The position numbers and the translations under genes are program-made. Shown here in pieces: positions 1,390-37,168 of a DNA stretch of 64,000 nucleotides. Origin of the DNA: an uncultured Chloroflexia bacterium (GTDB taxonomy: Bacteria; Chloroflexota; Limnocylindria; Limnocylindrales; CSP1-4). The stretch lies in NCBI GenBank assembly GCA_963776395.1, contig CAVZML010000006.1, positions 5,312 through 69,311 of the forward strand, in the 5' to 3' direction. The notes beneath the pieces were generated by a model. That model did not search any database and was not told the origin of the DNA. It saw only the letters and a list, made by a program, of their open reading frames with translations. Each line of letters opens with the position of its first letter. Within the stretch, counting starts at the first letter, position 1.

Positions 1390-1434
1390 TGGTAGGCCCG
1401 TGGGGACTCGAACCCCAGACCTCTACCGTGTCAA
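1390..1434 (-). repeat. tRNA-Val 3'-half copy (att-like) no. 1
   Basis: By eye, these 45 nt (tggtaggcccgtggggactcgaaccccagacctctaccgtgtcaa) are identical to 22868-22912 of the intact tRNA-Val. The copy ends at the anticodon loop. Confidence 0.9.
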
Positions 1435-1664
1435 CCTACCACGCATACAAAAGAGAAGGACTTAGATCGTGTCGAACAGCGTCTTCACAAGCGTTTTACC
1501 TATTTCACAGGTAGAGATCACAGGTAGGAAATGCAGGTTCCATTTGAGTTGCAGGCGCATTAACCTCCTTCCTCCAGTTGGAGCCCTCCACTAAACCTCG
1601 CCTGACTATTACCAGAAACCGAGTAACTCCGTCGACGATCCATCTAGAATCCAAAATATGATTG

Positions 1665-2318
1665 CTATGTAACGAGGGTGAACAGACCCGTGACCACGAG
1701 CGCTGCACTCCATACCAAGTTGAGATTAATCCAGGCCTTGCGAAGAATCGCCAGCCCGAGCTTGCTGTAGACCACCCATGCGACGATCCCGGTGACAGCA
1801 AGATAGGCAGCAGTATGGATCGCGGTGGCCAGCAGTGCTGCCAGGGGGCTGGCGGCTGCGGACATGTGATGGTGACCCGCCATGTGGTCAGCCGCTTCGA
1901 CTGCACGGCTGCCCAGCAGCACCGGCAGCAACATCAAACCAGCACCGTGCGCCGATGCCATCAGAAACGACCACAGCGTCAGGTCGCGAAAGCCTACCTG
2001 CATGCGGACCCATCGCGGATGGTAATGGCGCAGAAGGGAGAAAATTCCGAGGCCGAACAAAAGCGCCGCGACGGAATAGCGGATCGCCTCGCGCGGCAGT
2101 GCCATGCCGAGAAACGCCACCGCCAGAACGACGCAGCCAATGGACAACGCGTGGCCAAGCGCAATCGGGACCAGCGCTCTCGCCACCGCACTCCCCTTCT
2201 GCTCCTGCATCCCCAGCGCCACCGCGAAAAGCCAACCCATCCCGGGGTTGATTCCGTGGTAGGCGCCGAGCAGCAGCATCAGCCACAACGCAGTTGACCC
2301 CATCTCCGCGTGCATCAT
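1665..2318 (-). CDS. Polytopic membrane protein with a His-rich loop, function unknown
   Basis: 217-aa ORF with several hydrophobic helices and a DHMAGHHHMS loop. No family is recognised with confidence. Confidence 0.5.
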   Translation of the reverse strand: MMHAEMGSTALWLMLLLGAYHGINPGMGWLFAVALGMQEQKGSAVARALVPIALGHALSIGCVVLAVAFLGMALPREAIRYSVAALLFGLGIFSLLRHYHPRWVRMQVGFRDLTLWSFLMASAHGAGLMLLPVLLGSRAVEAADHMAGHHHMSAAASPLAALLATAIHTAAYLAVTGIVAWVVYSKLGLAILRKAWINLNLVWSAALVVTGLFTLVT

Positions 2319-3736
2319 TTCGCCTCTGAGTAGCAGTAGGAATCAGATGAAGCGTCCCCGCCCTCCAGCCGCACCTGATGCGCGCGCAACCCGTCGAACT
2401 CGACAAAGAATTTTTCGTCGAGTTTCATTCCGCCGTTCGGGTCCGCGTAAAGTTTTACCATCCAACTCTTCAGCCCATCGGGATAGATCTGCTCGTCCCA
2501 CGGGGAATAGAGCGAGTTGGTGAAGTAGACCCGCTTGCCATCACGGCTGATCTCAACCATCTGTGGGCCGCCGTTGAGCGGTTGCTTGGGGTTTTGGGGA
2601 TGAGCCGCACGGCGTACGATGCCGCCGAGATGGACTGAGCCCGTCTTTTCGGGTTGACCGGATCCGAGACGTCGTACTGGATGAACTCCCCGGTCCCCCA
2701 ACACGAAGCATAGAGGAAGCGGTCGTCGAGCGACAGATTGATGTCAGTTACAAGCGGTGGCACGGCCTTGAAGCCCTTCAGCAGTGGCGGCACAGTTCCG
2801 GATCAGCGGGCTCCGCGGCAATTTCAATCACTTTGCGGACGGCCCATTTGCCGTTCTTGCCGCCGTCCTCGCGGTACCACATCCAGATCGACGACGAAAG
2901 ATCTTTGAGCGAAATGCCCACGCTGACAAAACCATAAGTCTTATTGGGATCGTGAGAAGGGTCTCAACTCGAGCACCCACTGTTGCTCCGCACCCAAGTC
3001 CACTTCCTGCAGGTGGCGCCGCTTGTCCAGGTCCCAGATATGAATCTTGTGCCCGTACTTGCCGGCGAATAGCAGTTCCGGGTTGACGCCGTCTCTTCAC
3101 CATGTTCGGCGTGCCCCATTCGGACGTAATCATCGTGTCGTGTCCCAAGTGCCACCAGAAGTCATATGCCAGTTGCTGCGGGCCGCGATCCTGTTCCCAC
3201 TGGCCCTTCAGCTCGAATGTATTCGCGTCCATCAGGAATATGCCACCCGGGCCGTCTCCGCTCGCCGATCTCCCAGTGCGCTCTCCATAGATGCAATCGG
3301 GCCCGCAATGAATTGTATGAGGGCGAGGTGTAACCGGTTTTTTCGTTATGAACTCTTCCGGCTCGATCACCTTAACAATTTTCGGTTTTTGAGGATTCGG
3401 CTTCGTATCCAGGATGTAAATCCGGGATAAACCGATGCCTGGGACGATCAGGTAGCGACGTTCCATGTGCGGATGCGGGGTCTGCGGACAAAGACACGCG
3501 CTGCAGGCATTCCATCCGAAGTGATGCAGCTCATTGTCACTGCGGCCAAAATCCACTTGGCCAACCATTCGGCCATATGCGGACGAAGTGGGATCAAGAT
3601 CGATGACGCCCATACGGTCATGCTTTCCATTCTTGCCGTCGTTGAGCAGTGCTACATAGGCAAGGCGTTCTGGCGGAGCTTGCATGGCCATCTTGGGTGA
3701 AGGGTAGAAAGTGGGATCGGGGTGCAACATTGACAT
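2315..3736 (-). pseudogene. SBP56 (selenium-binding protein / methanethiol oxidase family) gene, at least 4 frameshifts
   Basis: ORF 2828-3736 matches the SBP56 N-terminal two thirds (HHFGWNACSACLC, PRPHTIHCGPD, WWHLGHDTMITSEWGTPNMV). The continuation NPELLFAGKYGHKIHIWDLDKRRHLQEVDLGAEQQ is in another frame. The C-terminal part (PPLLKGFKAVPPLVTDINLSLDDRFLY..., ...SLYSPWDEQIYPDGL...GGDASSDSYCY) is in ORFs 2470-2793 and 2315-2704. Confidence 0.8.
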
Positions 3737-3774
3737 TTTGAAGTCTCCTTTTTTATTTAGACGTTATCAGTGAT

Positions 3775-4632
3775 TTAAACGGCAACAGTAACCCGCATGA
3801 ACGTGGCAGGGATGAACGTGCCGGCGTTACTCTTGTTCTGCGCGATCGCTAGCTCCACAAGCTGCTTGTGCAGTTCCTCTTCTTTTCCGTTCTTTCGAGC
3901 TGCTTCGACGGCATTCATCGTCGGTCCATAGAACCTTTCGAACAGCTCGATGAACTCCGTCGGGCTTTTCTCGGAATGCGTGAAGTAGTACGTGTCCTTC
4001 ACCATGGAGATGTTTTCCTTGGGCACCCCGGCCTGCCCAAAGCGCTCGATAATGTGGCTCTCCACACCCCAAATCATCGGGCTCACAAAGCCTTCCGGAG
4101 GCGCAGGCGTGAACGCCGAACTGACTTTGAGCAACTGCGACACGAACGTCGGATCGTTGGGGATCCAATTGCCCATCACGATACGACCGCCGGGTTTCGT
4201 GACTCGCACCATCTCCCTTGCGACGTCGAATGGCTTGGGTGCGAACATCGCGCCGAACACCGAGAGGCTCAAATCAAACGAATCGTCGTCGACTCCTTCC
4301 AGATTGCAGGCATCGCCCTCATGAAACTTCAGCCGATTGAGACCTGCCTCTGCGGCTCGCTTATTGCCGGCTTCCACAAGGTTCCTGGCGATATCGACTC
4401 CCGTCACATCGGCGCCCAGACGCGCGAGCGGGAATGCTGTCGTGCCGTCTCCGCAGCCGAGATCCAACGTGCGCAACGGCAGCGTAACCCCGAGGGACTC
4501 GACAACCGCTTCTCCGGACTGCCGCATGAAAGCGGCGATCTCGGTGAAGTCACCTTTTTCCCATAATGCTTTATTCGGATTCTTGGCGGCTCCATTTGCT
4601 GCCGTGCTCGTTTCTACCGTTTTGGGACTCAT
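3775..4632 (-). CDS. Class I SAM-dependent methyltransferase
   Basis: Motif I (LDLGCGDGT) is followed by typical post-I/II motifs (VTGVDIA, FDLSLSVFGAMF, KPGGRIV). The start was chosen at the internal Met (MSPKTV), because the upstream part of ORF 3775-4809 looks non-coding. Confidence 0.8.
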   Translation of the reverse strand: MSPKTVETSTAANGAAKNPNKALWEKGDFTEIAAFMRQSGEAVVESLGVTLPLRTLDLGCGDGTTAFPLARLGADVTGVDIARNLVEAGNKRAAEAGLNRLKFHEGDACNLEGVDDDSFDLSLSVFGAMFAPKPFDVAREMVRVTKPGGRIVMGNWIPNDPTFVSQLLKVSSAFTPAPPEGFVSPMIWGVESHIIERFGQAGVPKENISMVKDTYYFTHSEKSPTEFIELFERFYGPTMNAVEAARKNGKEEELHKQLVELAIAQNKSNAGTFIPATFMRVTVAV

Positions 4633-4703
4633 TTGGGTATCTCCCGATTGGCATTGATTCCGCATCAGGATTACAATTCTGCAGCGAGTCTGCAGGAACG
4701 ACC

Positions 4704-5897
4704 ATGCCCGAGCGTCGCTATAACTTGCTCGAACGGCTGGCGGGCGCAGATTCCTTTGCACGGATGCCAGGTAACTTTGCAGAGAGTCCGGTCGACAGAA
4801 TGGACGCATTCTCCGAAATCTTGAGCGGAGTCAAGCTGAACGGCGCTGTTTTCTTCACGGCCGAATTCTCGGCCCCCTGGGGATTCTCAGCGCCCGCCTC
4901 GAAACAAATGGCGAATCGGCTCGCTACCGGAGCGGCACATTTTTTGCTTTACCATCTGGTGGTCGAGGGCGGCGCGGTTGTCGAAATGGCGGACGGGCAG
5001 CCCCTCGAGCTCAGCTCCGGAGATGTCGTCATTTTCCCGAATGGCGATGCACATCACATGAGCAGCAAGGGAGCGAAGCCGCCGTTCCCTAACTACGGAA
5101 TCAATGAAAAGATCAAGTCGCGCGACTTGAGCCCTTTGCACGCCGGCGGCGGCGGCGAGACTTCGCGCTTCGTGTGCGGATACATGACTTGTGACCCCTA
5201 CCTCAGCCGGCCAATACTAAACGGCCTGCCGCCTGTGTTTAAGGTCAACATCCGGACGGATCGATCCGGACAGTGGTTGGAGAGTTCCATTCTGCACTTG
5301 GTCGAAGAAGCGGTTTCGGGACGCGTCGGCAGTGAAGCCATGCTTGCGAAGCTCTCGGAGGCCCTGTTCGTTGACACGTTGCGGCGTTACGTTACTGCAT
5401 TGCCCGAACAGCAATGGAGTTGGCTCACGGGAGCGCGCGATCCGATCGTGGGCAAAAGCTTGAGCTTGATGCATCGCCGCATCGCTCACCCGTGGACCAT
5501 TGCGAGCCTCGCGGACGAGGTGGGCATTTCACGATCAGCTTTGGTGGAGCGGTTCACCCGATATCTTTCCGAACCACCCATGGCGTACTTGACGCGCTGG
5601 AGACTTCAATTGGCCGCGCGATCACTGGAAAGGACATCGCGAGGTGTCGCGGAAATCGCCGGTGACGTCGGGTATGAGTCAGAGGCAGCTTTCAACCGCG
5701 CGTTCAAGCGTGAGTTCGGACGGCCCCCAGGTCGATACCGCAGCGATCATAAAAAGTCCCTCATCACGCGTCAGAAAAATGGCCGGGGGCAGGACGAGAG
5801 TGCCTCCTCCGGGACCGATATCAGTCGCCCCAGCCCTACCATCAGGAAAAGAACAGAGTCCATCTCCAGGAAAAAGAAGCGCTCTGAAGCAATGTAG
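4704..5897 (+). CDS. AraC family transcriptional regulator (cupin-type N-domain)
   Basis: N-terminal cupin-like domain, followed by a C-terminal AraC double HTH (IASLADEVGISRSALVERF...GYESEAAFNRAFKREFGRPPGRYR). The start was taken at MPERRY. The last ~40 codons run into island-junction repeat sequence. Confidence 0.8.
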   Translation: MPERRYNLLERLAGADSFARMPGNFAESPVDRMDAFSEILSGVKLNGAVFFTAEFSAPWGFSAPASKQMANRLATGAAHFLLYHLVVEGGAVVEMADGQPLELSSGDVVIFPNGDAHHMSSKGAKPPFPNYGINEKIKSRDLSPLHAGGGGETSRFVCGYMTCDPYLSRPILNGLPPVFKVNIRTDRSGQWLESSILHLVEEAVSGRVGSEAMLAKLSEALFVDTLRRYVTALPEQQWSWLTGARDPIVGKSLSLMHRRIAHPWTIASLADEVGISRSALVERFTRYLSEPPMAYLTRWRLQLAARSLERTSRGVAEIAGDVGYESEAAFNRAFKREFGRPPGRYRSDHKKSLITRQKNGRGQDESASSGTDISRPSPTIRKRTESISRKKKRSEAM

Positions 5898-5926
5898 GCC
5901 CGCTGAGCACATCTCCACAGTGTCAA
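5893..5926 (-). repeat. Decayed tRNA-Val 3'-half remnant
   Basis: tgtaggcccg...cacagtgtcaa keeps both ends of the 45-nt att block but carries an internal deletion. Confidence 0.5.
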
Positions 5927-6016
5927 CCTACCACCGATACCTTGGAACAACCGCTCTACAGGTGAAGAATTACAGGTGAAGTTTCCTGGTGATTTTTGCT
6001 AAGTGATTGAAAACGA

Positions 6017-6060
6017 TGGTAGGCCCGTGGGGACTCGAACCCCCAGACCTCTCGTGTCAA
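6017..6060 (-). repeat. tRNA-Val 3'-half copy no. 2 (slightly degenerate)
   Basis: Same block as 1390-1434, but with one extra C in the T-arm and a 2-nt deletion before gtgtcaa. Confidence 0.85.
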
Positions 6061-6212
6061 CCTATAGCAAGAAACAAAAAGAGAACAACTTAGCCCGTAT
6101 CGAACGCCGTCTTTCCAATTGTTTTAGTGTCGATACAGATAAGAATCACAGTTAGGAAATGCAGGTGGCTTGCATTCATAGGTTCTTAAGACGTCTGGCT
6201 CAAACGCTTTTG

Positions 6213-7256
6213 CTACCCGTTCGGCATCAGTACGATCTTACCGATCACGCCTCCGCCTCCCAGTAATTCGTGTGCGTGCCGCGCTTGGCAGAGAGGCAAC
6301 CGTTGTGCGATCAGCGGCTTGATCTTCTTCTGCTGTAATAGGTCGAACAATGTGAGTAGGTCGTGGCGGAACCACGCGGGTTTCAGCCGCATCAGCCACT
6401 GGATACTGTAAGGCACCATGCTCTTGCGGCCCGGAAGAAACCAGTTCCGGAGAATGTACCACCCCAAGATCGCGGATTCCCGAATCGGGTGCCGCCCGCT
6501 CGGCGCGCCCGAAGCCATCCTTCCTCCGTGCAGCTTGGCCTGGAATCCGTAAACCACCACGCGGCCGCCTTCGCGGAGCGCTTCGCGCGAGCGCCATAGA
6601 TTGTCGCCACCGATACCGTCGAAAACAGCATCCACACCGTCACCGGTGAAGCGGTGGATTTCCTGGACGAAGTCAGAATTGCGGTAGTCGATGGGGGTGG
6701 CGCCAAGCTCCTTAACTACGTCCGTTGCCTGCGCCGAACACGTTCCGTACATTTCCACGCCGGCGAGCCGCCCCAGTTGCAGGAACGCAGTGCCGACGCC
6801 GCCTGAGGCGCCGTGAATCAGTACGCGCTGCCCTGGCTTTACTTTCGCCGAACGATCCAGCATCTGGTATGCCGTGATGTAGTTCAAGACGACCGCGACG
6901 GCTTCTGCAGGGTCCAAACCTGCGGGCACTGGAATGAACTTGCGTTGTGGCAAGCAAACATATTGTGCGTAACAGCCGCTGATCGGCATGGCCGCAACCG
7001 TCTGGCCCGGTTCGAAACCGGAGACGCCTTCGCCGATATGATCCACAATGCCGACCAGGTCCCAACCGGGCGTATAGGGCACGCGCGGTGTTTCCGGATG
7101 GACGCCCTCGCGCGCCAGTACGTCGGGAAAACTAACGCCCGCGGCCAGCACCTTCACCCGGACCTCGCCAGGCATTGGCGCAGGGCATTCTTGTTCGGCG
7201 ACAGTGATCACCTCCGGTCCGCCGTAGTGCGTGACGACGATCTTCGTCTGCCGCAT
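6213..7256 (-). CDS. MDR-superfamily zinc-type/quinone oxidoreductase, copy A
   Basis: 347-aa intact ORF with a GroES-like N-domain and a Rossmann motif (HGASGGVGTA). Paralogous to 19394-20449; about 20 aa differences counted by eye. Confidence 0.85.
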   Translation of the reverse strand: MRQTKIVVTHYGGPEVITVAEQECPAPMPGEVRVKVLAAGVSFPDVLAREGVHPETPRVPYTPGWDLVGIVDHIGEGVSGFEPGQTVAAMPISGCYAQYVCLPQRKFIPVPAGLDPAEAVAVVLNYITAYQMLDRSAKVKPGQRVLIHGASGGVGTAFLQLGRLAGVEMYGTCSAQATDVVKELGATPIDYRNSDFVQEIHRFTGDGVDAVFDGIGGDNLWRSREALREGGRVVVYGFQAKLHGGRMASGAPSGRHPIRESAILGWYILRNWFLPGRKSMVPYSIQWLMRLKPAWFRHDLLTLFDLLQQKKIKPLIAQRLPLCQARHAHELLGGGGVIGKIVLMPNG

Positions 7257-7626
7257 AAGCCACTTGTCGGCATACTATGCTGGGCGCTCGATCTTGTCGA
7301 CCAGAACTCTTTCTTACACTGACCCGAATAAAACCGGAACTGATCGACCTACACATCGGAACGCGCTGGCAACGAGGATGTGAAACAGCTCGCCGTCATA
7401 TCCCCTGCGATAATGGGCCCCGCGTACTTCCGCGAGGCCGCCGAAGTAATCAACGCTGCCGCCGGCGGCCCGCCCGATCACCCAAAATGATGGACGTCTT
7501 CCGCCGTCATGGCATGACGCTGGCCGTGCCCCCGCCTGTTAAGTAGAGACGTTTGTAAGCCCGGTGTAGAATCCGGACGGTCTTCGTTCTTAAATCGGAA
7601 ATGTCGGTTCATTCAGGAGGATAGTC

Positions 7627-8055
7627 GTGACAGCAGATGAGCAAGTCATCCAAGGAATCCTGCAACAAATCGAAAGCGCGTGGAATCGTTACGATAGCGT
7701 CAGCCTTGCAGCGATGTTTGCCGAGGATGCCAACTTCATCCAAATCTTTGGGGGACAGTTGGACGGGCGGACTGCCATAGAGGCGTCGCACCGGCACATT
7801 TTCGAGACGATCTACAAAGGCAGCCATGCCAGTTTCGTGCTACGGAGCATCCGCTTTCTGCGCCCCGATGTCGCGGTGGTATTCGCCCGAGCGCACGTGA
7901 AGTTCAAGGAAGGCGACGAGGCGCGCGAAATAGAAACCCGCCCAACGTTGATCGTCGTAAAGGAGCAGGACAAGTGGCAAATCGTCGCGTTCCAAAACAC
8001 CAAGATCTCCGAGGTGCCAGCCGCCGCCCAAGCCGCGGCCCGTCTTGCAACTTAG
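7627..8055 (+). CDS. SnoaL-like / SgcJ-EcaC family protein, copy A
   Basis: 142 aa, with RBS aggagga before a GTG start. The pattern W..A.N..D...LA.MFAEDA.F........GR.AI...H resembles the SgcJ/EcaC (DUF4440-like) fold. Confidence 0.7.
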   Translation: MTADEQVIQGILQQIESAWNRYDSVSLAAMFAEDANFIQIFGGQLDGRTAIEASHRHIFETIYKGSHASFVLRSIRFLRPDVAVVFARAHVKFKEGDEAREIETRPTLIVVKEQDKWQIVAFQNTKISEVPAAAQAAARLAT

Positions 8056-8308
8056 TGGTGAAACCTCGGCCCGCCCTCAACCAGCAGCAGGGACGATCTT
8101 GCGAAATGCCGATGGCGAAAAGACCGTGCCTTGGGTTCCTTGGGAGGTCCCATGGGACGTCTCATCTCCACAGCCTCAACCTACGACCACCCATAGCAAA
8201 GAGAACAACTGAGGCCGTATCGAACATCCGTGCTACCTGTGTCATACCATGCAGGTTGTCCCAGTATAACCGTCATCTGGCGGGCGGCGATGGGCAAGTT
8301 GGGATTAG

Positions 8309-9486: not shown

Positions 9487-9669
9487 GCTCCCGCGATAGC
9501 GTTCATGGAGAGAATGCCACCCCTCAGGGCAGCCCACTTGTGGGCAGAAGAAGGAGCACGAAAAGGCCCTCAAGAGTAAAGAAAGAGAGCAGCCGCAAAC
9601 GACCGCCAGTTCCTCTCCGAGAGGAGGAAGCGCTCTGAGGCAATGTTGGCCCGTATGACCTGAAAACGA

Positions 9670-9714
9670 TGGTAGGCCCGTGGGGACTCGAACCCCAGAC
9701 CTCTACCGTGTCAA
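9670..9714 (-). repeat. tRNA-Val 3'-half copy no. 3
   Basis: 45 nt identical by eye to 22868-22912. Confidence 0.9.
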
Positions 9715-10033
9715 AGCGGTTTTATTATCTACGGCCAACAACTTCGAGGGCATTGGACGCCGCCTAAGTCCGTGTAAGGACGCCTATCCTGAAACTCTTG
9801 CAGGTGAAATTACGGGATTCTTTGGTGAACTGAAATAAGAGAAAACAGCACGCCAGATATATATATACCGTGCTAGATAGTGTGCCGTATGGTTAGCACA
9901 ACTCGCAAGGAGGCGATGACACTCGTTTGAAGACCAATCTGAAGAATCTTCTTCTACCAGCGGGCGCCCAAATTCAGAACGCTTCGCTCATAAGCGCGGG
10001 ATTGATAACGAAATCGGACCCTGTTTCTGCTCG

Positions 10034-14296: not shown

Positions 14297-14353
14297 TCAT
14301 TGACGCGACCGGTCGCCCTGTGCCATGCTCCGTTCAATTCGGTACTCCACACC

Positions 14354-16236
14354 ATGAAACTGCGTTCCGCCAGCATGACGGTTGTCCTCGCCCTCGGAAT
14401 TACCTTAGTTGTGGTCGTTGCCTGCGCGGCTGCCTCTTACATTTATTCCGTTCACCACTTCCAGAGCCTCTTGGAAACCGCGCGCAGCACAGCACTCGCC
14501 GAAGGCGACCTGATCCGCGTTGCGCTCGAGCACCAGATGATCGAAAACGACCGTACCCTAATTGGGCGTATGATCGAAAGTTTCGGGAAACAGGCACGCG
14601 TTGAACAAATCATTCTGTTGGACCGCAACGGCATGGAACGGTATTCGAGTAAGCCTGGAACGGTTGGGAACAATTTCCGGATCGATTCTCCCACATGCCA
14701 GGCCTGCCATCGAGATCCGCCGGAACGCAGGGACACAAGCCGCGTCATCGAGACGCGAGGTGGCGACGATACTCAGAACCGTGGTGCCGATTCGAAACCG
14801 CGAAGAGTGCCACAAGTGCCACGATCCGCAGCAAAAGATTAACGGCATCCTCATTCTCGATTACAACGCTGGAGAGGTCCGCGCCGCGATGACGCGGGAT
14901 CTGCGCTGGATGGTGGCCGGCACCGGTGCGTTGACCTTCGTAGTCGCCGGTACCATCTTGCTCCTCATCCGGTTTTCCGTGCTGCGCCGTCTGAACCAGT
15001 TTGAGACCACCGCGCGCTTGATTTCCCAGGGCGACCTGCAACGCCGCGTTCCGGCGGAAGGTTCGGACACATTGGCCTGGTTGGGCCGGGAGTTCAACGC
15101 CATGGCTGATTCCGTGGTTGGTTTGGTGGGTGAAGTTCGCACGCAGCGGGAACGCCTGGAGACCGTCATCAACAGCATCGATGACGGAATCGTCGTCCTT
15201 GACCCGGAACGAAGAATCCTGGCGGCGAACGATGCCTTTCTGCAGCGCACAGGGAGCAACCGTGATCAGGTGCTGGGCTGCAGTTGTCTGGAAGTCGGCT
15301 CCGGCCCTTGCAACGTGGTCGATTGTCCCGCGCTTGCTTGTTTGCAGTCCGGTGCGCGCCAGGTGCGCATTTGCGAACGCAGAACCAGCAAGGGCACCCC
15401 GGCATGGGAAGAGATTCACGCTTCTCCAATTCTCGACGCCTCAGGCCGCCTGACCCAAGTTGTGGAGGTCTGGCGCGACATTTCGGAGCGCCGTGCGGCC
15501 GAGGCAAACCTTGCGGAGTCGCATCGCTTGGCCTCGCTGGGAGTGCTGGCTTCCGGGTTTTCGCACGAGTTGAACACGCCGCTCGGAACGGTCCTGATGT
15601 GTGTCGAGGGAATCCTCCGCGAAACTCCCGCAGGAGAGAATCGGAATGCGGACGTAGACCCGGCCAGGATTCGGGACAGCGCCAACATCGCCCGCGAACA
15701 GATCTTGCGCTGCCGTGGCATCACCCAGAATTTCTTGAGATTGTCGCGGGGTCAGCGGGCCCCCGGGAACATCGTGGACATTGGATGTGGCAATCGCAGC
15801 GGTACAGCAGGCTGATCGATCCCACCGCGTCCGCCCACTCGGTGAGCGTCGAGGTGCATCCGTTTCCGGCGGGCTTGCGCGTCCGCGCAGACGAAGCAGA
15901 ACTACAAAACCTCTTGGTCAATCTGATCCTCAATGCCATTCAAGCCTCAAGGCCGGGAAACAAAGTTGTCGTCGAGGCGACCGAGAGGCGATACCGTTTG
16001 CATGCGTGTCTCCGACGAGGGGTGCGGGATTGCCCCGGAATACCGGGAGAAGATTTTTGAGCCCTTTTTCAGCCTCCGCTCAGGTGGCACCGGGCTGGGT
16101 CTTTTCCTGTCGTTGAACGCCGTGCGCAGCTGGGGCGGTGACATTCCTGTGGAGAGTACTCTGGGAAATGGGTCTACCTTCGAGGTCGTGCTCCCGGCAA
16201 TCCAACAGGGCATGCAGCAGCAAGGGGAGACAATGA
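14354..16236 (+). CDS. Sensor histidine kinase with CxxCH-containing periplasmic domain, HAMP, PAS, HisKA and HATPase (about 3 frameshifts)
   Basis: TM helix (MTVVLALGITLVVVVACAAA), CQACH and CHKCH motifs before the second TM helix, HAMP (ISQGDLQRRVP), PAS (DDGIVVLDPERRILAANDAF), H-box (SGFSHELNTPL), N/G boxes (LILNAIQAS, DEGCGI, GGTGLGL). Pieces lie in ORFs 14300-14842, 14601-15815, 15284-16060 and 15933-16415. Confidence 0.8.
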
Positions 16237-17597
16237 AGCCGGCTTCCGTCCTCCTCGTTGATGACGATGCAGTATTTCGCCAAGTGATGGCGAATGAGCT
16301 GACTCGTCTCGGCTATCAAATTGATGCAGTGGGAACAGGTGAGGAGGCCGTCCAGTCGAGTTGCCACCTCAGAACCCGAAGTCGTCCTGCTCGACCTGCG
16401 CCTGCCCGGCAATGAACGGCCTGGACGTGCTGAAGGCCATCCACGCCAGCGCGCCGGCAACCGAGGTCATCATGTTGACCGGCCACGGTTCCATCGATAC
16501 GGCAATCGAATCGATCCGTATCGGTGCGTTCGATTACGTCGTGAAGCCTTGCCCGCTCGATGAACTTCATATTCGGATTCAGAGAGCAATTGAGCGGCGA
16601 TCGCTGCAGCAGAGGGCGAATCTTCTCGAGCGCGGTTTGACCCCGCCCGATCTCGGAAGTTCGTTCATCGGCGAAAGCCCGGAATTCCGCGGCTTGCTCA
16701 AACTGATCGAGCTGGTGGCCCCCAGCGATGGCACCGTGCTCATCACCGGAGAGACCGGCGCGGGGAAAGAACGCGTCGCCAAGCTGATTCACGCGCGCAG
16801 CCCTCGCCGATTCCGGCCGTTCGTAGTGGTGGAGTGTGCCACCTTGCAGGAGAGCTTGCTCGAGAGCGAACTGTTCGGCCACGAACGCGGCGCGTTCACC
16901 GGTGCCGATCGCGGCAAGCCAGGATTATTCGAAGTCGCGCAATCGAGGAACGATTTTCCTCGACGAGATCGGCGAGGTCAGCCCTGCGACCCAGACCAAG
17001 TTGTTGCGCGTCCTGGACACCTCCACTTTCCGGCACGTCGGTGGGACAGGCGAAATTCGTGTTGATGTTCGGGTTTTGACTGCGACCAACCGCGATCTCT
17101 ACGCTATGGTCCGGCAGGGCCTTCTCCGTGAAGATCTGTTCTATCGCCTCAGCACCATTACCGTGGAAGTTCCTCCACTGCGGGCCAGAGGCGCTGACGT
17201 GGAACTGCTGGCGCAACACTTTGTGAATACGCTCAACGAGCGGTTCACCTCCAGCAAACAGATCAGCGAGGAAGCTTTGCAGCTACTGCGTCGCCACAAC
17301 TGGCCGGGAAACGTGCGCGAACTTCTCCACGTAGTCGAAGCGGCCATGGTGTTATGCGAGGGAAACAGCGTTCTTCCGGAGCACCTCCCCGCTCCCTTTC
17401 GTAGTTCGCGCGCCGGCCCAGGGGCGAATGCTTTATTGAACGGTGGTTCGCTCCCGACTCTAGAACAAGCGGAGCGAGAACATATCCGGCTGGCGCTCGA
17501 AGCCAGCAAGGGCCACCGTGGAAATGCGGCCAAAATCCTTGGTATCAGTGAGCGGAATCTTTACCGGAAACTTCACGAGCACCGTCTGCTGGACTGA
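16233..17597 (+). CDS. Sigma-54-dependent (NtrC-family) response regulator, about 2 frameshifts
   Basis: REC domain (VLLVDDD...[12 protein letters not shown]-like), AAA+ domain ([14 protein letters not shown], walker B FLDEIGE, R-finger region) and Fis-type HTH ([18 protein letters not shown]). Spread over ORFs 15933-16415, 16361-17065 and 16836-17597. Confidence 0.85.
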
Positions 17598-17838
17598 ACC
17601 GGCCTGCCCGGCTATGCTCAATCTGAACTGGACAAGGTAGCACTACGCTTAAATCAACTCTCGCGAAAGAGCTTAGGTTTTGAGACACTTGCGAGTGAAC
17701 TTCGAGCTAATGTTGCGTCGATCGACCAATTAAGCTCGCCAGCTAATCAAGTTTTTACTGGGACCTACTTGATTACACCACGCGCAATCAAGCCACTTAC
17801 AGGTGAAGAATTACAGGTGAAGTTTTTTGAGTTCTTTC

Positions 17839-19186
17839 GGCTCTGAGCGAGAATCTGTAGAGGCCCAATAAGAGAGCGGGTTTCCGTGAGGGGGCTGTTC
17901 GGCTAGACTCGGGGGAATGCGCGACAACGAATTCACGAGAATCCTAGATTGGCCGGGTTACCGAGTTTTTCGACACGAAATCGATGAAACAGCCAAGACG
18001 CTGCGGTTATGGGTGCGGCGGAAACGGGGCAACCGCAAACTGATCTGTTCGGGATGTGGAAGGAAGTTTACCGAAGCCCATGATTATTACCAGCGCGAGG
18101 TGCGCGACTTGCCGTGGAGGAAGTATCAGACCACGGTGATCATCGAACTATACCGGGTGTGCTGTCCCGAGTGTGGGGTAAGGATCGAGAAGGTTCCGCA
18201 ACTGCCGGGCAAAGCGCCGTTCAGCAAAGACTTTGAGGATGCCGTGGGGCTGGCGTGCGAAAGCGCATCGGTACGCCAGGTGGCCCGACAGTTCGGACTG
18301 GTTGCCAGCACGGTGCGAGCGATCGACCTGCGGTATCTGCAGCGATGGAGTGCCACGCGGCGCAAGGAGCGGTTGGAACAGATGGGCGTGGATGAGATTT
18401 ACTTTGGCAAGCAGATGAAATTCATCACCGTGGTCAGCAACTTGGAGACCGGCGAGCCCTTGTGGTTTGGACAGGATCGCAAACAGGAAACACTCGATGA
18501 GTTTTTCCGAACGCAATTGAGGGCCACACAGCGGAAACGAATTGAGGCGGCTTGCGTGGATATGTGGCGGCCGTTCACCAACAGCATTAAACAATGGGCC
18601 CCGAATTGCCGCATCGTCTACGACAAGTTCCACGTCCTGCAGCACGCCAACAAAGCCATCGATGAAGTGCGCCGGGCGGAGTTCTTCCGCAAAGGCGGGC
18701 GCATGCGCGGTGTCGTGAAAGGCAAGCGCTGGCTGCTGCTGACTCGCTGGATGAATCTGGACAGCCAAAAACGGCAGCAGTTAAACCAGCTATTCGCCCT
18801 CAATCGGCAGGGTGATGAAAGCCTACCTTCTAAAGGAAAGTCTGGAACGGTTGTGGACCTACCGCTATGAAGGGGCCATGCTGAACTATTTGAAGAACTG
18901 GATTGATCAACTGCGGTGGCAACGGTTGGTACCGTTTCAAAACCTCGCGAAAATGCTGCTGGATCACCTCGACGGCATCCTCAACTATTGCCGCACGAAA
19001 GTACCCTTCGGAGTGGTGGAAGCCATCAACGGCAACATCAAAACCCTTTTTAGAAGGGGTCGTGGCTACAAGAATCTTGGTTATCTGCTGCTCAAGGCTC
19101 AGCGCATGGCGGTCACCAAGACCGAATTCATCGTTCTACAGAAAGCCGCCTAAAATGCGCGTCTCTACGAATTCTCGTGCAGAGCC
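17839..19186 (+). mobile_element. ISL3-family insertion sequence with 8-bp target-site duplication
   Basis: The terminal inverted repeats GGCTCTGAGCGAGAATCTGTAGAG (left) and CTCTACGAATTCTCGTGCAGAGCC (right) are imperfect reverse complements. The flanking direct repeat GTTCTTTC occurs at 17831-17838 and 19187-19194. A transposase gene lies inside. Confidence 0.85.
17917..19153 (+). CDS. ISL3-family transposase (single frameshift near 18805-18812)
   Basis: N-terminal zinc-finger region (CSGCG...CCPECG) and the DDE domain are in ORF 17917-18870. The C-terminal part (MKAYLLKESLERLW...) is in ORF 18812-19153. Joining them needs a 1-nt correction. Confidence 0.85.
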
Positions 19187-19211
19187 GTTCTTTCTAAGTG
19201 ATTGAAAACGA

Positions 19212-19256
19212 TGGTAGGCCCGTGGGGACTCGAACCCCAGACCTCTACCGTGTCAA
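19212..19256 (-). repeat. tRNA-Val 3'-half copy no. 4
   Basis: 45 nt identical by eye to 22868-22912. Confidence 0.9.
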
Positions 19257-19393
19257 CCTATCACGGAGCCAAAAGAGAACAACTTAGCCCGTATCGAACG
19301 CCGTCTTTCCAATTGTTTTAGTGTCGATACAGATAAGAATCACAGTTAGGAAATGCAGGTGGCTTGCATTCATAGGTTCTTAAGACGTCTGGC

Positions 19394-20449
19394 TCAAACG
19401 CTTTTGCTACCCGTTGGTATCAGCACGATCTTACCGATCACGCCTCCGCTTCCCAATAATTCGTGTGCGTGCCGCGCTTGGCAGAGAGGCAATCGTTGTG
19501 CGATCAGCGGCTTGATCTTCTTCTGCTGCAGTAGGTCGAACAGTGTGAGCAAGTCGCGGCGGAACCACGCGGGTTTCAGCCGCATCAGCCACTGGATACT
19601 GTAAGGCACCATGCTCTTGCGGCCCGGCAGAAACCAGTTCCGGATGATGTACCACCCCAAGATCGCGGATTCGCGAGTCGGGTGCCGCCCGCTCGGCGCG
19701 CCCGAAGCCATCCTTCCTCCGTGCAGCTTGGCCTGGAATCCGTAGACCACCACGCGGCCGTTTTCGCGGAGCGCTTCGCGTGAGCGCCATAGATTGTCCC
19801 CACCGATGCCGTCGAAAACAGCATCCACACCGTCACCGGTGAGGCGGCGGATTTCCTGGACGAAGTCAGAATTGCGGTAGTCGATGGGGGTAGCGCCAAG
19901 CTCCCTAACTACCTCCGCCGCCTGCGCCGAACACGTTCCGTACATTTCCACGCCGGCGAGCCGCCCCAGTTGCAGGAGCGCAGTGCCGACGCCGCCTGAG
20001 GCTCCGTGAATCAGCACGCGCTGCCCCGGCTTTACGTTCGCCGAACGATCCAGCATCTGGTATGCCGTGATGTAGTTTAAGACGACCGCGACGGCTTCTG
20101 CAGGGTCCAAACCTGCGGGCACTGGAATGAACTTGCGTTGCGGCAAGCAAACATATTGTGCGTAACAGCCGCTGATCGGCATGGCCGCAACCGTCTGGCC
20201 CAGTTCGAAACCGGAGACGCCTTGGCCGATCTGATCCACAATGCCGACCAGGTCCCAACCGGGCGTATAGGGCACGCGCGGTGTTTCCGGATGGACGCCC
20301 TCGCGCGCCAGTACGTCAGGCAAGCTCACGCCCGCGGCCAGCACCTTCACCCGGACCTCGCCAGGCATTGGCACAGGGCATTCTTGTTCGGCGACAGTGA
20401 TCACCTCCGGTCCGTTGTAGTGCGTGACGACGATCTTCGTCTGCCGCAT
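19394..20449 (-). CDS. MDR-superfamily zinc-type/quinone oxidoreductase, copy B
   Basis: 351-aa intact ORF, paralogue of 6213-7256. Confidence 0.85.
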   Translation of the reverse strand: MRQTKIVVTHYNGPEVITVAEQECPVPMPGEVRVKVLAAGVSLPDVLAREGVHPETPRVPYTPGWDLVGIVDQIGQGVSGFELGQTVAAMPISGCYAQYVCLPQRKFIPVPAGLDPAEAVAVVLNYITAYQMLDRSANVKPGQRVLIHGASGGVGTALLQLGRLAGVEMYGTCSAQAAEVVRELGATPIDYRNSDFVQEIRRLTGDGVDAVFDGIGGDNLWRSREALRENGRVVVYGFQAKLHGGRMASGAPSGRHPTRESAILGWYIIRNWFLPGRKSMVPYSIQWLMRLKPAWFRRDLLTLFDLLQQKKIKPLIAQRLPLCQARHAHELLGSGGVIGKIVLIPTGSKSV

Positions 20450-20820
20450 AAGCCACTTGTCGGCATACTATGCTGGGCGCTCGATCTTGTCGACCAGAAC
20501 TCTTTCTTACACTGACCCGAATAAAACCGGAACTGATCGACCTACGCATCGGAACACGCTGGCAACGAGGATGTGAAACAGCTCGCCGTCATATCCCCTG
20601 CGATAATGGGCCCCGCGTACTTCCGCGAGGCCGCCGAAGTAATCAACGCTGCCGCCGGCGGCCCGCCCGATCACGCCAAAATGATGGACGTCTTCCGCCG
20701 TCATGGCATGACGCTGGCCGTGCCCCCGCCTGTTAAGTAGAGACGTTTGTAAGCCCGGTGTAGAATCCGGACGGTCTTGGTTCTTAAATCGGAAATGTCG
20801 GTTCATTCAGGAGGATAGTC

Positions 20821-21249
20821 GTGACAGCAGATGAGCAAGTCATCCAAGGAATCCTGCAACAAATCGAAAGCGCGTGGAATCGTTACGATAGCGTCAGCCT
20901 TGCAGCGATGTTTGCCGAGGATGCCAACTTCATCCAAATCTTTGGGGGACAGTTGGACGGGCGGGCTGCCATAGAGGCGTCGCACCGGCACATTTTCGAG
21001 ACGATCTACAGGGGCAGCCATGCCAGTTTCGTACTACGGAGCATCCGCTTTCTGCGCCCCGATGTCGCAGTGGTATTCGCCCGAGCGCACGTGAAGTTCA
21101 AGGAAGGCAACGAAGCGCGCGAAATAGAAACCCGCCCAACGTTGATCGTCGTAAAGGAGCAGGACAAGTGGCAAATCGTCGCGTTCCAAAACACCAAGAT
21201 CTCCGAGGTGCCAGCCGCAGCCCAAGCCGCAGCCCGTCTTGCAACTTAG
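20821..21249 (+). CDS. SnoaL-like / SgcJ-EcaC family protein, copy B
   Basis: 142 aa, with 3 aa differences from 7627-8055. Confidence 0.7.
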   Translation: MTADEQVIQGILQQIESAWNRYDSVSLAAMFAEDANFIQIFGGQLDGRAAIEASHRHIFETIYRGSHASFVLRSIRFLRPDVAVVFARAHVKFKEGNEAREIETRPTLIVVKEQDKWQIVAFQNTKISEVPAAAQAAARLAT

Positions 21250-21503
21250 TGGTGAAACCTCGGCCCGCCCTCAACCAGCAGCAGGGACGATCTTGCGAAA
21301 TGCCGATGGCGAAAAGACCGTGCCTTGGGTTCCTTGGGAGGTCCCATGGGACGTCTCTCATCTCCACAGCCTCAACCTACGACCACCCATAGCAAAGAGA
21401 ACAACTGAGGCCGTATCGAACATCCGTGCTACCTGTGTCATACCATGCAGGTTGTCCAGTATAACCGTCATCTGGCGGGCGGCGATGGGCAAGTTGGGAT
21501 TAG

Positions 21504-22682
21504 ATGGCTATTTGGAGGAAGCTACATTCGACAATGACTTCATCTCTATTGGATCGTTCTCAATATCCATGCCTCCGCGACAGTGTGTATCTGAATCAAG
21601 CATCGTTGGGATTGATTGGCCAGCCAGCAGTCGCTGCGATGCACAACTTCCTTGAGAATGTGGCGAGGCATGGCAATCTCTTTATGTCGGACAGCGATGA
21701 GATCAACTACGGGCATGCCCTTAGGGGAGTTGCCGGCAGATTGTTTCATAACGATCCATCTCGCATCGCCATTCTTGCGAGTGCGAGCGAACTGCTGGGA
21801 CAATTTCCTCTGCTACTTCGTCTCAAACCCAATGCCACAATTCTTGCAGTTTCCTCCGACTTTCCCGCAGTCACTCGCCCGTGGATTCGCCAGTCCTATT
21901 TTGAAAAAATCCATGTTCGTTTTGTCGATGATCTTCCTGATCGTGATCTGACAGACGCCATCATTAACGCCATAGACGAAACCACGGGTGTCATAGCTGT
22001 TGGCAGTGTGCAATACGCTACAGGCACCCTCGTGGACGTTAGTCGCGTGGCCAGAAGTGCTCAGAAGGTGGGCGCATTCCTGATCGTTGACGCGACCCAA
22101 GCGGCCGGTGCAATGCTGGTGGATACCTCGACGTTCGAAGCTGCTGCGGTGGTTACCAGTGGTTATAAGTGGTTGGGCGGACATGGGGGCGTCGCTTTGG
22201 CAGTCGTGTCTGAGTCCTTACTGAAACAGCTTCCGATTTTGCCGGGCTGGATGGGCGCCCCTGATGCTTTTGACTTCGACGCTAAATCAGTTTCCTTCGC
22301 GTCCGATGCTCGGCGCTTCACGCAGTCCACCATGTCCTATGTCTCGATAGCGGGTCTCACTGTTTCTATCGAACAGCTGTTGTCCCTCGGGGAGAACCGA
22401 ATTGAAGCGCATGCACATCAATTGGCCGCGCTGCTGGTTGATGGCGCTCGCGAATATGGCTGGGAACCGTTTCATGACGTTCATGGTGTGGCCGCATCTC
22501 CTCACATCATCTCGCTTGCACACAGCCGAAAGAGCGCACGGGAAACCGTGGAGAAACTCCGCGACCAGAGGATTATATGTTCGGCGCGCGGCGAACGGAT
22601 CCGAGTATCCCTTGCTCCTTACAACGATGCAGGTGACGTGATGAAGCTTTTTCAGGCGCTCGCGGGGTTTCATTCCGCATGA
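21504..22682 (+). CDS. Class-V aminotransferase-fold PLP-dependent enzyme (cysteine desulfurase / selenocysteine lyase-like), intact copy B
   Basis: 392-aa ORF with a class-V fold pattern, including SGYKWLGG (candidate PLP lysine). Confidence 0.75.
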   Translation: MAIWRKLHSTMTSSLLDRSQYPCLRDSVYLNQASLGLIGQPAVAAMHNFLENVARHGNLFMSDSDEINYGHALRGVAGRLFHNDPSRIAILASASELLGQFPLLLRLKPNATILAVSSDFPAVTRPWIRQSYFEKIHVRFVDDLPDRDLTDAIINAIDETTGVIAVGSVQYATGTLVDVSRVARSAQKVGAFLIVDATQAAGAMLVDTSTFEAAAVVTSGYKWLGGHGGVALAVVSESLLKQLPILPGWMGAPDAFDFDAKSVSFASDARRFTQSTMSYVSIAGLTVSIEQLLSLGENRIEAHAHQLAALLVDGAREYGWEPFHDVHGVAASPHIISLAHSRKSARETVEKLRDQRIICSARGERIRVSLAPYNDAGDVMKLFQALAGFHSA

Positions 22683-22867
22683 GCTCCCGCGATAGCGTTC
22701 ATGGAGAGAATGCCACCCCTCAGGGCAGCCCACTTGTGGGCAGAAGAAGGAGCACGAAAAGGCCCTCAAGAGTAAAGAAAGAGAGAGCAGCCGCAAACGA
22801 CCGCCAGTTCCTCTCCGAGAGGAGGAAGCGCTCTGAGGCAATGTTGGCCCGTATGACCTGAAAACGA

Positions 22868-22944
22868 TGGTAGGCCCGTGGGGACTCGAACCCCAGACCT
22901 CTACCGTGTCAAGGTAGCGCTCTAACCAACTGAGCTACGGGCCT
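22868..22944 (-). tRNA. tRNA-Val (anticodon GAC)
   Basis: Folded by hand into a 77-nt cloverleaf: acceptor AGGCCCG/CGGGCCT, D-arm GCTC-AGTTGGTTA-GAGC, anticodon arm CTACC-TTGACAC-GGTAG, T-arm TGGGG-TTCGAGT-CCCCA, discriminator A and an encoded CCA. Confidence 0.92.
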
Positions 22945-37162: not shown

Positions 37163-37168
37163 GCATAA

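Follow-up and report, generated by a model that had tools for sequence, protein, structure and literature searches.

Sites of integration within tRNA genes (tDNA) are reportedly ordered by sublocation in a scheme put forward by Williams in 2002. In the Islander collection, 3760 of 3919 islands are of the 3'-fragment type, as against 159 of the 5'-fragment type, and 2083 are anticodon-centred; only four arrays of at least three islands are included, with an integrase required for each member (PMC4383910). The locus described here lies in a window of 64,000 nucleotides, the whole stretch of DNA analysed. It shares with Islander islands an intact tRNA gene accompanied by displaced fragments in direct orientation, identity running from the loop to the gene end, tyrosine integrases adjoining the tRNA gene, and the occurrence of both 3'- and 5'-fragment types. 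It differs from the Islander cases in having, at a single gene, seven displaced 3' halves along with an island on the 5' side, and the Islander integrase filter would reject most of its modules.

CIMEs and tandem accretion are exemplified by ICESt1/ICESt3 of Streptococcus thermophilus, in the part of PMC5704250 that relays Pavlovic 2004 and Bellanger 2011. As in that part of the account, the window contains att-bounded units without integrase or transfer genes, arranged in tandem at the 3' end of the target gene, and newcomers would have entered a regenerated site. In contrast to the elements treated there, no conjugation or mobilization genes are visible in the window, and its units are far more numerous and much smaller.

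In the ssrA arrays of Dehalococcoides, tandem islands lie between more than 12 direct repeats of the end of a small-RNA gene; fifteen islands without an integration module were suggested to be CIMEs, and the older parts are fixed and syntenic (PMC3146451). The window likewise has tandem islands, some integrase-less, between direct repeats of a small-RNA gene end. However, the Dehalococcoides arrays involve serine recombinases, a 20-bp repeat and the T-loop of tmRNA (PMC3146451), whereas the window has tyrosine recombinases, repeats of 40–45 nt and a crossover in the tRNA anticodon loop, with both sides of the gene used. A row of small, mostly single-function, integrase-less units between recombination sites near an integrase gene also recalls integrons. 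This likeness is one of resemblance only: instead of an IntI-type integrase and folded attC hairpins, the locus has tRNA-derived, double-stranded att sites with arm motifs.

Copies of the tRNA-Val(GAC) 3' half and their flanks

ARAGORN and Rfam detected a single tRNA in the window, an intact tRNA-Val(GAC) at 22868–22944 on the minus strand. An exact search with its 45-nt 3' half (CCA end to anticodon loop) returned four matches in the same orientation, at 1390, 9670, 19212 and, in the live gene, 22868; none was expected from 100 shuffles. The first three had been called identical by eye in the first-pass annotation and are named here c1 (1390–1434, +), c4 (9670–9714) and c5 (19212–19256). The small-indel copy reported at 6017–6060 (c2b, +) was also recovered, with a 94.5% match. 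Three decayed copies exist as well, at corrected coordinates: c2a at 5895–5926 (+; previously 5893–5926), with the acceptor and T arm mostly deleted, c3 at about 8140–8179 (previously 8163–8190) and c6 at about 21335–21375 (previously 21357–21385). In the copy alignment, all three have the variant CATCTCCACAG(TG/CC)TCAA in common and run on into the flank of the good copies, which marks them as homologous relics rather than matches by chance. Every 3'-half copy breaks at ..TCAA in the anticodon loop, in agreement with the stop at GTGTCAA noted earlier, and 47 of 122 exact 3'-half matches in a scan of Acidobacteriota genomes were fragments broken at the same GTGTCAA.

The flanks had been described as mutually related. 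This holds for six of the seven non-tRNA copies, in which CCTA comes next and then a related flank, AAAGAGAACAACTTAG..CGTATCGAAC; the seventh, at 9670, is flanked differently, by sequence found again in the comparison loci L038, L049 and L084. The iterated motifs proposed as possible arm-type sites proved real and tied to particular positions. ACAGGTGAAG is present as a pair at 5958/5972, in module Eb, and as another at 17799/17813, in the P arm of module Ee; CACAGGTAG occurs twice at 1507/1520, in the X arm of module Ea; and TTGGTGCACA pairs at 22997/23009 and 37329/37341 are confined to both ends of the 5'-side element. In 12 independent loci, ACAGGT pairs stand at constant spacings from the site (−59/−45 or −69/−55 from the CCA end; +72/+85 or +85/+97 past the loop), a pattern that fits arm-type integrase sites. 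CAANNNNTTR was found 15–24 nt past the loop in 18 of 53 fragment flanks (0.6 expected from shuffling). Lying about 20 nt from the crossover, it fits the consensus of a DNA-bending site for integration host factor (IHF).

Modules and integrases on both sides of the gene

The anatomy of the 3' side (1435–22912) can be read directly from the DNA. Module Ea (1435–5926) contains the X arm, a 217-aa hypothetical protein (hyp217), an SBP56 pseudogene, a SAM methyltransferase and an AraC/cupin regulator. The unrelated contig L129 has the same gene series (AraC, methyltransferase, SBP56, hyp217) in a block inverted relative to the decayed half; the hyp217–SBP56 stretch (1690–3750) is 85% identical to it and AraC only about 65%, and the methyltransferase has no DNA match in L129. 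Module Eb (5927–6016) is empty, with arm sequence only. Its counterpart is the arm to the left of tRNA-Val in L053 (78% match) and L104 (85%), and an empty unit resembling it is present in L008. Module Ec (6061–8179) has an X arm, a zinc-type alcohol dehydrogenase gene (6213–7256, −) and a DUF4440/SnoaL gene (7627–8055, +), both assigned by Pfam on the ORFs of the Ef copy and transferred at about 96% nucleotide identity, and is closed by c3. Module Ed (8180–9714), closed by c4, consists of an X-arm-like flank, a class-V aminotransferase gene frameshifted at about 8504, and a P arm.

Module Ee (9715–19256), closed by c5, begins with a left arm of the other flank family, 83–85% identical to the fragment flanks in L038, L049 and L084. 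It carries genes for c-type cytochromes, cytochrome b and a Rieske protein, together with fragments of cNMP-binding, histidine kinase and sigma-54 activator genes. An ISL3-family insertion sequence (17839–19186, +; Pfam DDE_Tnp_ISL3, HTH_Tnp_ISL3 and Zn_ribbon_ISL3) lies within its P arm, with a truncated or split transposase, terminal inverted repeats GGCTCTGAGCGAGAATCTGTAGAG and GGCTCTGCACGAGAATTCGTAGAG, and the 8-bp target duplication GTTCTTTC at 17831–17838 and 19187–19194. Modules Ef and Eg (19257–22912) are a second copy of Ec and Ed, with c6 inside. By Pfam they hold an alcohol dehydrogenase gene (19394–20449, −), a DUF4440 gene (20821–21249) and an intact aminotransferase gene (about 21534–22682), and they end in the 3' half of the live tRNA. 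No integrase was found between the copies, with ordinary cargo only in Ea, Ec+Ed, Ee and Ef+Eg. These modules resemble CIMEs (cis-mobilizable elements) as integrase-less, att-bounded units, and their present-day mobility would need an integrase in trans.

The first-pass annotation had reported a single, dead integrase abutting the most distal copy. Its decay is clear: the frame-1 translation of the tyrosine integrase pseudogene at about 160–1367 (+; Pfam Phage_integrase and Phage_int_SAM_3) is interrupted by in-frame stops and frameshifts close to the catalytic region. It is not the only one, as the last 39 codons of a second family remain at 22964–23080 (−), a stub that encloses the first TTGGTGCACA pair. 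The stub matches at 85% identity the C-terminal end of the L053 integrase (tblastn; Phage_integrase), which adjoins the tRNA-Val 5' end in that locus. No intact integrase was found within the 64-kb window. The pseudogene lies left of c1, which forms an attP-like junction with the X arm on its right; the order integrase C-terminus, 3' half, X arm is also contiguous in L005, and in 11 loci an intact relative, likewise placed and oriented, adjoins tRNA-Val or a fragment of it. Because the left is where the integrase of the supplying element sits in L014, L068, L077 and L106, c1 is probably not the distal end. The pseudogene is part of an older element extending left, past the window edge, and the array itself probably continues there, judging from this arrangement.

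The hotspot is two-sided. A 14.5-kb integrative element, E5' (22913–37467), is bounded by a 40-nt direct repeat of the tRNA 5' half; its cargo comprises Ig-like/DUF1573, Kelch, CVNH, anti-sigma-like, TPR and CHAT proteins and a multihaem cytochrome. Neither this element nor the 5'-half copy appeared in the earlier annotation. The displaced native 5' half (37461–37500, −) is identical at 39 of 40 positions, the mismatch falling in the loop (GTGTCAG). The right junction of E5' was found in six metagenome contigs, four of which run into the same chromosomal flank, and L104 has a contiguous, attP-like version. The native flank (37501–39189) takes in the region upstream of the tRNA together with the 5' portion of a GAF/sigma-54 activator gene. 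It is 88–90% identical to DNA upstream of intact tRNA-Val in the Acidoferrales MAGs L014, L042 and L073, with homology that begins exactly at the anticodon loop and ends at 39189. Since the native 5' half and chromosomal flank sit at 37461–39189, both halves of the live tRNA were probably supplied by elements, the 3' half by Eg and the 5' half by E5'.

The locus in other Acidobacteriota genomes

The homologies found in the genome comparison were observed directly. The 47 fragments have a few recurrent flank families, the window's among them. About 25 loci have a tyrosine integrase adjoining tRNA-Val or a fragment of it; in L004, L032, L053, L065 and L094 an integrase lies on the 5' side. Both sides of the tRNA are occupied by an integrase or stub in L032, L116 and L049/L053, a window-like layout. 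Short integrase-less elements lie between tRNA-Val halves in L044 (1.5 kb), L097 (3.4 kb), L069 (4.1 kb) and L049/L053 (6.9 kb). The same break, flank families, arm motifs, integrases and two-sided occupancy outside the window uphold the first-pass proposal of an integration hotspot with an anticodon-loop crossover.

The same annotation had counted at least four successive or amplified integrations. Accretion stands, but the copies cannot count integrations, because the internal deletion of c2a occurs identically, in an identical setting, in L129 and is thus an old shared scar. In the comparison with related genomes, the flank of an intact tRNA-Val was recovered in three (L014, L042 and L073). 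The cargo genes have a conserved neighbourhood in L119, L126 and L129, where att sites are few or absent; some of the modules may thus have been resident for long and rearranged by other means, and not be separate integrations. No exact match to any window protein is known from other records. Cargo genes take other arrangements in related genomes, and the array is an old mosaic of integration plus deletion, inversion and IS insertion. Later decay is seen in one integrase pseudogene, one 39-codon stub, some eroded half-copies, several broken cargo genes and the ISL3 element in one arm.

Origin of the array

We consider it probable, at about 80%, that positions 1–37500 are an old pile of integrative elements, many layers deep, at a single chromosomal tRNA-Val(GAC) gene of an Acidobacteriota (Acidoferrales-like) soil host. 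We infer the recombination chemistry and the order of events as follows. On the known biology of integrases, at least two families of tyrosine integrase would cut and rejoin DNA within the 7-nt anticodon loop, with the palindromic anticodon stem as core site. Elements on the 3' side would carry the tRNA 3' half in attP, so that insertion rebuilds the gene and displaces the earlier 3' half outward; repeated insertion (accretion) would give the row of copies. Internal junctions are attP-like, with a P arm, the 3' half and loop, a P' (X) arm and paired ACAGGT(G/A) motifs. An element of a second type (22913–37467), carrying the tRNA 5' half and upstream region, would have entered the same loop from the opposite side and left the native 5' half stranded at 37461. 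Against the integration pile, the sequence that follows the loop at X-arm junctions, CCTACC, departs from the inverted repeat that a classic core site would show. The window has no intact integrase and gave no sign of excision, so that nothing points to present activity of the array.

The first-pass annotation had missed a 3.7-kb duplication (5993–9714 vs 19188–22912; 97.9% identity). Its 78 substitutions are unevenly distributed, with 4–5% divergence in the dehydrogenase part vs about 0.3% in the aminotransferase part, where about 1 kb has zero differences. The block was either acquired twice or duplicated long ago. For this block only, it is possible but rather unlikely that unequal homologous recombination between half-copies duplicated it in place, without a second integration. 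The right end falls exactly at a half-copy and, with the ISL3 element discounted, the left end is set about 60 nt inside the P arm that adjoins a half-copy on its left (5957/17798); the near-identical aminotransferase parts also favour this origin. However, repeats of 45–55 nt are short for RecA-dependent exchange, the uneven divergence requires extra events such as gene conversion, and the copies are separated by the 9.5-kb Ee, which has its own arm family and needed site-specific recombination to enter anyway.

At 39189/39190 the window switches mid-gene to Chloroflexota-like DNA, likely a misjoin to judge by the sequence, and with this chimerism its long-range continuity is unproven. That the repeated blocks might be assembly artefacts had been raised earlier; the two 3.7-kb copies differ by about 2% and are therefore not a collapsed-repeat artefact, but the window is chimeric. 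We regard it as very improbable that the assembly strung islands of different strains or loci together at the shared 45–55-nt tRNA half, with strain variants of the 3.7-kb block in tandem. At least one abrupt join of two phyla inside a gene, the shortness of the shared repeats (up to 55 nt), a difference of about 2%, as between strain variants, and the lack of exact protein matches would agree with such an error. However, the join at 39190 does not coincide with a repeat and is thus an error of another kind, all internal junctions have the structure of a tandem array (P arm, half, P' arm), and matching layouts are present in independent assemblies: a pair of fragments in one tile in L097 and in L104, the integrase–half–X arm order in L005, the empty unit in L008 and the two-sided loci.

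The modules could also be dedicated integrase-less cassettes with conserved ACAGGT arms, captured and shuffled at tRNA-Val by a trans-acting integrase in integron-like fashion, which we find unlikely. As expected of cassettes, the elements seen end to end (Ea, Ec+Ed, Ee, Ef+Eg, L044, L097 and L049/L053, most of them ACAGGT-armed) have neither an integrase nor a remnant of one. Their sizes go down to 1.5 kb and a single gene; an integrase of the pseudogene family directly adjoins the X arm in the window and in L005; and the aminotransferase gene recurs at ≥90% nucleotide identity in at least three unrelated settings. The sample, however, is small and made of 8-kb tiles only, integrase loss by deletion is well documented in CIMEs, and the window's own deletion left just a stub. 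The cassette genes also occur in the conserved neighbourhood of L119, L126 and L129 with few or no att sites. No circles or alternative junctions were seen, which also counts against cassettes.

As an old pile of integrative elements, about 37 kb of mostly decayed modules would be an extreme case of a known process, with no new mechanism. Its ingredients are already published: anticodon-centred attP, 5'-fragment islands, tandem arrays and CIMEs (PMC4383910, PMC3146451, PMC5704250).

Fragments of the tRNA-Val gene

The sole tRNA gene in the window is a tRNA-Val(GAC) on the minus strand (22868–22944), and Rfam identified no other RNA family there. The first-pass annotation had described exact copies of the 45 nt between its CCA end and the 5′ edge of the anticodon loop; we recovered these, in the same orientation, at 1390, 9670 and 19212, where none is expected by chance. 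The copy with small indels (6017–6060) is likewise present. Three fragments that had been proposed as decayed copies proved real, at about 5895–5926, 8140–8179 and 21335–21375: they have a common variant sequence and the same flank as the good copies, indicating that they are relics and not chance matches. All copies terminate at GTGTCAA or ..TCAA, and the suggested break in the anticodon loop recurs in at least 47 fragments from other genomes. The block of identity stops within the 7-nt loop, between symmetric anticodon-stem arms, as in an anticodon-loop (class A/I) site.

Self-comparison of the window revealed a further repeat that the first-pass annotation had missed. The 5′ half of the gene (22906–22945) recurs at 37461–37500 with one mismatch. 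Every 3′ fragment, as well as this 5′ fragment, is direct relative to the intact gene; with the gene on the minus strand, the 3′ fragments at lower coordinates are downstream and the 5′ fragment at a higher coordinate is upstream. An intact tDNA and its cognate fragments thus share one replicon and one orientation, in the correct configuration, as the Islander definition of a tDNA island demands. The same definition requires a tyrosine integrase in each island, and the window has just a pseudogene (160–1367) and a 39-codon stub (22964–23080). The array qualifies as the remnants of tDNA-integrated islands rather than as intact islands.

A host scan was performed with a 33-nt query from the 3′ half, using one genome per species. 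Among the matches listed, all were MAGs, nearly all of them labelled Acidobacteriota (Terriglobia or Acidoferrales). A separate scan of viral contigs did not detect the 3′ half, so a known phage origin is unsupported. Two short contigs labelled otherwise, L005 (DATKPA010000057.1, Phycisphaerae) and L085 (Udaeobacter), carry Acidobacteriota-type tRNA-Val halves and arms; these contigs are probably mis-binned mobile DNA.

Integrase-less modules on the 3′ side

The half-copies delimit a series of modules, Ea to Eg. Ea (1435–5926) contains a 217-aa hypothetical protein, an SBP56 pseudogene, a methyltransferase and an AraC/cupin regulator. Eb (5927–6060) is arm sequence alone, without genes, and its last 44 nt are the indel half-copy. 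Ec (6061–8179), judging from its copy in Ef, contains a zinc alcohol dehydrogenase and a DUF4440 protein, and Ed (8180–9714) a frameshifted class-V aminotransferase. Ee (9715–19256) carries cytochromes, a Rieske protein, and sensor and regulator fragments, and Ef and Eg (19257–22912) are a second copy of Ec and Ed in which the aminotransferase is intact. Half-copies with their P and P′ arms (the flanks left of the 3′ half and right of the loop, respectively) enclose each of Ea, Ec+Ed, Ee and Ef+Eg, which have no integrase, the pattern of cis-mobilizable elements (CIMEs) accreted in tandem. An integrase deletion is visible in the element on the 5′ side, where a stub is left; in modules Ea–Eg neither an integrase nor a recognisable remnant of one was found.

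The right arm of Ee is interrupted by an ISL3-family insertion sequence (17839–19186) with ISL3-type DDE transposase domains (Pfam), terminal inverted repeats and an 8-bp target duplication, GTTCTTTC. Its transposase is probably broken, because the open reading frame spans only 144 of the 240 Pfam profile positions. With the insertion taken out, the right arm of Ee is homologous to Eb. Broken cargo genes were also observed (2315–3750, 14300–16100 and 16660–17600): the SBP56 gene, which is full length in locus L129 of another genome, a PAS/HAMP histidine kinase divided over two frames, and a sigma-54 activator missing its N-terminal part. These are consistent with long residence without selection.

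Iterated motifs in the flanks had been put forward as possible arm-type sites. In the P arm, left of several halves, ACAGGTGAAG occurs twice, at −59 and −45 from the CCA end (5958 and 5972); another pair, at 17799 and 17813, stood at −59 and −45 before the IS insertion. In the P′ arm, here termed the X arm, CACAGGTAG occurs twice at +72 and +85 (1507 and 1520). ACAGGT pairs were found at matching distances in 12 loci of other genomes, which is consistent with arm-type sites. In addition, of 53 fragment flanks, 18 from several flank families have CAANNNNTTR 15–24 nt past the loop, where shuffling predicts 0.6. Integration host factor (IHF) is a DNA-bending protein, and this motif, which matches the IHF consensus, fits a putative IHF site. 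In their overall layout the junctions of the array resemble attP sites.

The integrase pseudogene lies left of copy 1 (the exact half-copy at 1390–1434) and points at it. Its Phage_integrase and SAM-like domains mark it as a true tyrosine recombinase, now interrupted by stops and frameshifts. Intact relatives adjoin the half that each supplies (L014, L068, L077, L106 and others), indicating that the window's integrase belongs to an older element that extends out of the window; the array therefore probably does not end at copy 1. The first-pass annotation had regarded this gene as the only integrase, dead and abutting the most distal copy; it is indeed dead, but it is accompanied by the 39-codon stub, and copy 1 is probably not the most distal. 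The integrase C-terminus, the 3′ half and the X arm are contiguous in the window and independently in L005, which ties the X arm to the integrase family of the pseudogene. This order is expected for elements of the same family in tandem.

A second feature absent from the first-pass annotation was a duplication of 3.7 kb (5993–9714 and 19188–22912; 97.9% identity by self-comparison). The two copies are separated by 78 substitutions and a few indels: the dehydrogenase part is about 4–5% different, and about 1 kb of the aminotransferase part has zero differences. Such divergence rules out a simple collapsed-repeat artefact, and equally a duplication of very recent date.

The class-V aminotransferase (21534–22682; also 8286–9486) has more than 100 close relatives or clusters in metagenomes at 76–95% protein identity, mostly 85–93%. 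Versions with about 90% nucleotide identity stand in three or more unrelated genomic contexts (L119, L123, L126 and L129), and the gene looks like often-moved cargo. We considered that it might be the native neighbour of the tRNA and rejected this, as none of 118 tRNA-Val loci has it while at least three unrelated settings do. In L119 and L126, it stands tail to tail with the dehydrogenase across a join at window positions 22799 and 19391 with 9-nt microhomology; this arrangement is a circular permutation of Ef+Eg with the att junction deleted. In L123, it lies beside the 3′ end of a different tRNA (about 9700–9750). L129 has the order aminotransferase, its P arm, a decayed half, the X arm and the Ea gene set in opposite orientation. 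The decayed half in L129 has the same internal deletion as the copy at 5895–5926, indicating a scar common by descent or co-transfer.

The region was shaped jointly by integrations, deletions, inversions and one IS insertion, and the array is old and mosaic. Given these events and the scar shared with L129, the number of half-copies does not equal the number of integrations, and the earlier count of at least four integrations cannot be read from it.

The 5′-side element, its chromosomal flank and the composition switch

The 5′-side element (22913–37467, 14.5 kb) is bordered by the 40-nt 5′-half repeat. A pair of TTGGTGCACA motifs lies close to either end (22997/23009 and 37329/37341), and the rest of the window has none. 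Beyond the element, positions 37461–39189 are 88–90% identical to DNA upstream of intact tRNA-Val in three Acidoferrales MAGs (L014, L042 and L073). This homology sets in precisely at the first anticodon-loop base (37461). The stranded 5′ half and its flank are therefore native, and all sequence from 22913 to 37467 was inserted on the 5′ side of the gene. The element's flank upstream of the live tRNA recurs in L053 (92.6% identity over 215 nt), where it continues into a 409-codon open frame that encodes a Phage_integrase domain and adjoins the tRNA-Val 5′ end. The stub at 22964–23080 corresponds to the last 39 codons of this type of integrase (85% identity), and homology ends there; the integrase of the 5′-side element was lost by deletion.

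A metagenome scan identified the right-hand junction of the element in six contigs. Four of the six run into the window's chromosomal flank and GAF gene, and a paired GGTGCAC motif lies at the same distance in five. In L104, both ends of the element are joined in an attP-like arrangement. Further 5′-side integrases were found in L004, L032, L065 and L094, and an integrase or integrase stub is present on both sides of the tRNA in L032, L116 and L049/L053, a layout resembling that of the window. A search of the arm left of 37461 for a concealed, decayed 5′ half was negative. From the geometry of the locus, the live tRNA seems to have received its 3′ half from module Eg and its 5′ half from the 5′-side element. 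In consensus promoter scans, no sigma-70-like site preceded the live tRNA, and none preceded the stranded native 5′ half.

At L003, L018, L031, L052 and L116, integrase frames related to the 5′-side family extend 46–54 nt into the tRNA-Val 3′ half, so that attP seemingly lies inside the integrase gene. An attP within the integrase gene has been reported for Mx8 and SSV. The family thus apparently lies 5′ of the tRNA in some genomes and 3′ of it in others. The 3′ flanks were also compared at 12 loci with the native upstream flank: four carry the same integrase family, and a flank is common only to L015 and L043. The window itself stops short of the native 3′ flank of its tRNA-Val. An open reading frame on the minus strand just upstream of the native tRNA flank (37518–38018) matches a CdiI-type immunity protein domain weakly (PF18593, E = 5e-7). 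This frame, which overlaps the beginning of the GAF gene, may be spurious.

GC content is 54–59% from position 1 to ~38 kb and 65–75% beyond, reaching about 72% after 39190. The native GAF/sigma-54 activator gene breaks off mid-codon-run at 39189/39190, where Acidobacteriota-like DNA (about 56–60% GC) gives way abruptly to DNA of about 72% GC. With reading frames picked by third-position GC, the genes past this point are ordinary housekeeping genes. Among them, adenosylhomocysteinase is 87–95% identical to database proteins, the few organism-named ones being Chloroflexota (Limnocylindrales). No repeat, IS end or att site was found at the join. The simplest reading is that this is probably a chimeric assembly join; a real transfer between phyla is less likely. 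The join lies outside the tRNA-Val array, yet it calls for caution over the long-range continuity of the window. Independent assemblies contain the same structures, which supports the local array junctions.

Comparable units and known systems

Short integrase-less units between tRNA-Val halves are common in the comparison genomes. They include 1.5 kb with one DUF2165 gene (L044), 3.4 kb with a protein kinase (L097), 4.1 kb with an XhoI-type restriction-modification pair (L069) and 6.9 kb with a response regulator and a kinase (L049/L053). An empty unit like Eb, with a decayed half after it, is present in L008.

One possible explanation is an integron-like cassette system at the tRNA-Val(GAC) of soil Acidobacteriota. 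Small integrase-less modules, whose arms carry conserved ACAGGT motifs and whose core is a tRNA half, would be captured, stacked and reshuffled at the anticodon loop by integrases of resident elements acting in trans. A related integrase family would use the opposite side of the same symmetric site, and the working tRNA gene would eventually be made wholly of element-donated halves. We consider this full scheme unlikely, at roughly one chance in five. The array does not conform to the integron definition (IntI-type integrase, attI and attC hairpins). Unlike IntI, both integrases of the window are of the ordinary Phage_integrase type, their N-termini being SAM-like or arm-binding, and its sites are tRNA halves, not the imperfect palindromes of attC.

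Every ingredient of the array is already known. In the Islander survey, 2083 of 3919 islands have anticodon-centred sites and 159 have 5′ fragments; 125 tandem pairs and four arrays of three or more were recorded, and integrase-less candidates were discarded (PMC4383910). CIMEs and accretion are described for streptococcal elements (PMC5704250), and Dehalococcoides has more than 12 ssrA repeats with tandem islands, and 15 islands without an integration module (PMC3146451). What is unusual here is the number of layers, the small modules uniformly without an integrase, and the use of both sides of the gene.

The array leaves the current understanding of the mechanism unchanged. It is a clear and unusually crowded case of one tRNA gene gathering tens of kb of foreign DNA from both sides, in Acidobacteriota, a phylum whose mobile elements are little studied. 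As standard island finders demand an integrase per island, they would miss most of the array and similar short units elsewhere. The common arm motifs offer concrete sites for asking which integrase moves which module. The live tRNA, apparently rebuilt from two element-borne halves, shows the reach of gene replacement by integration.
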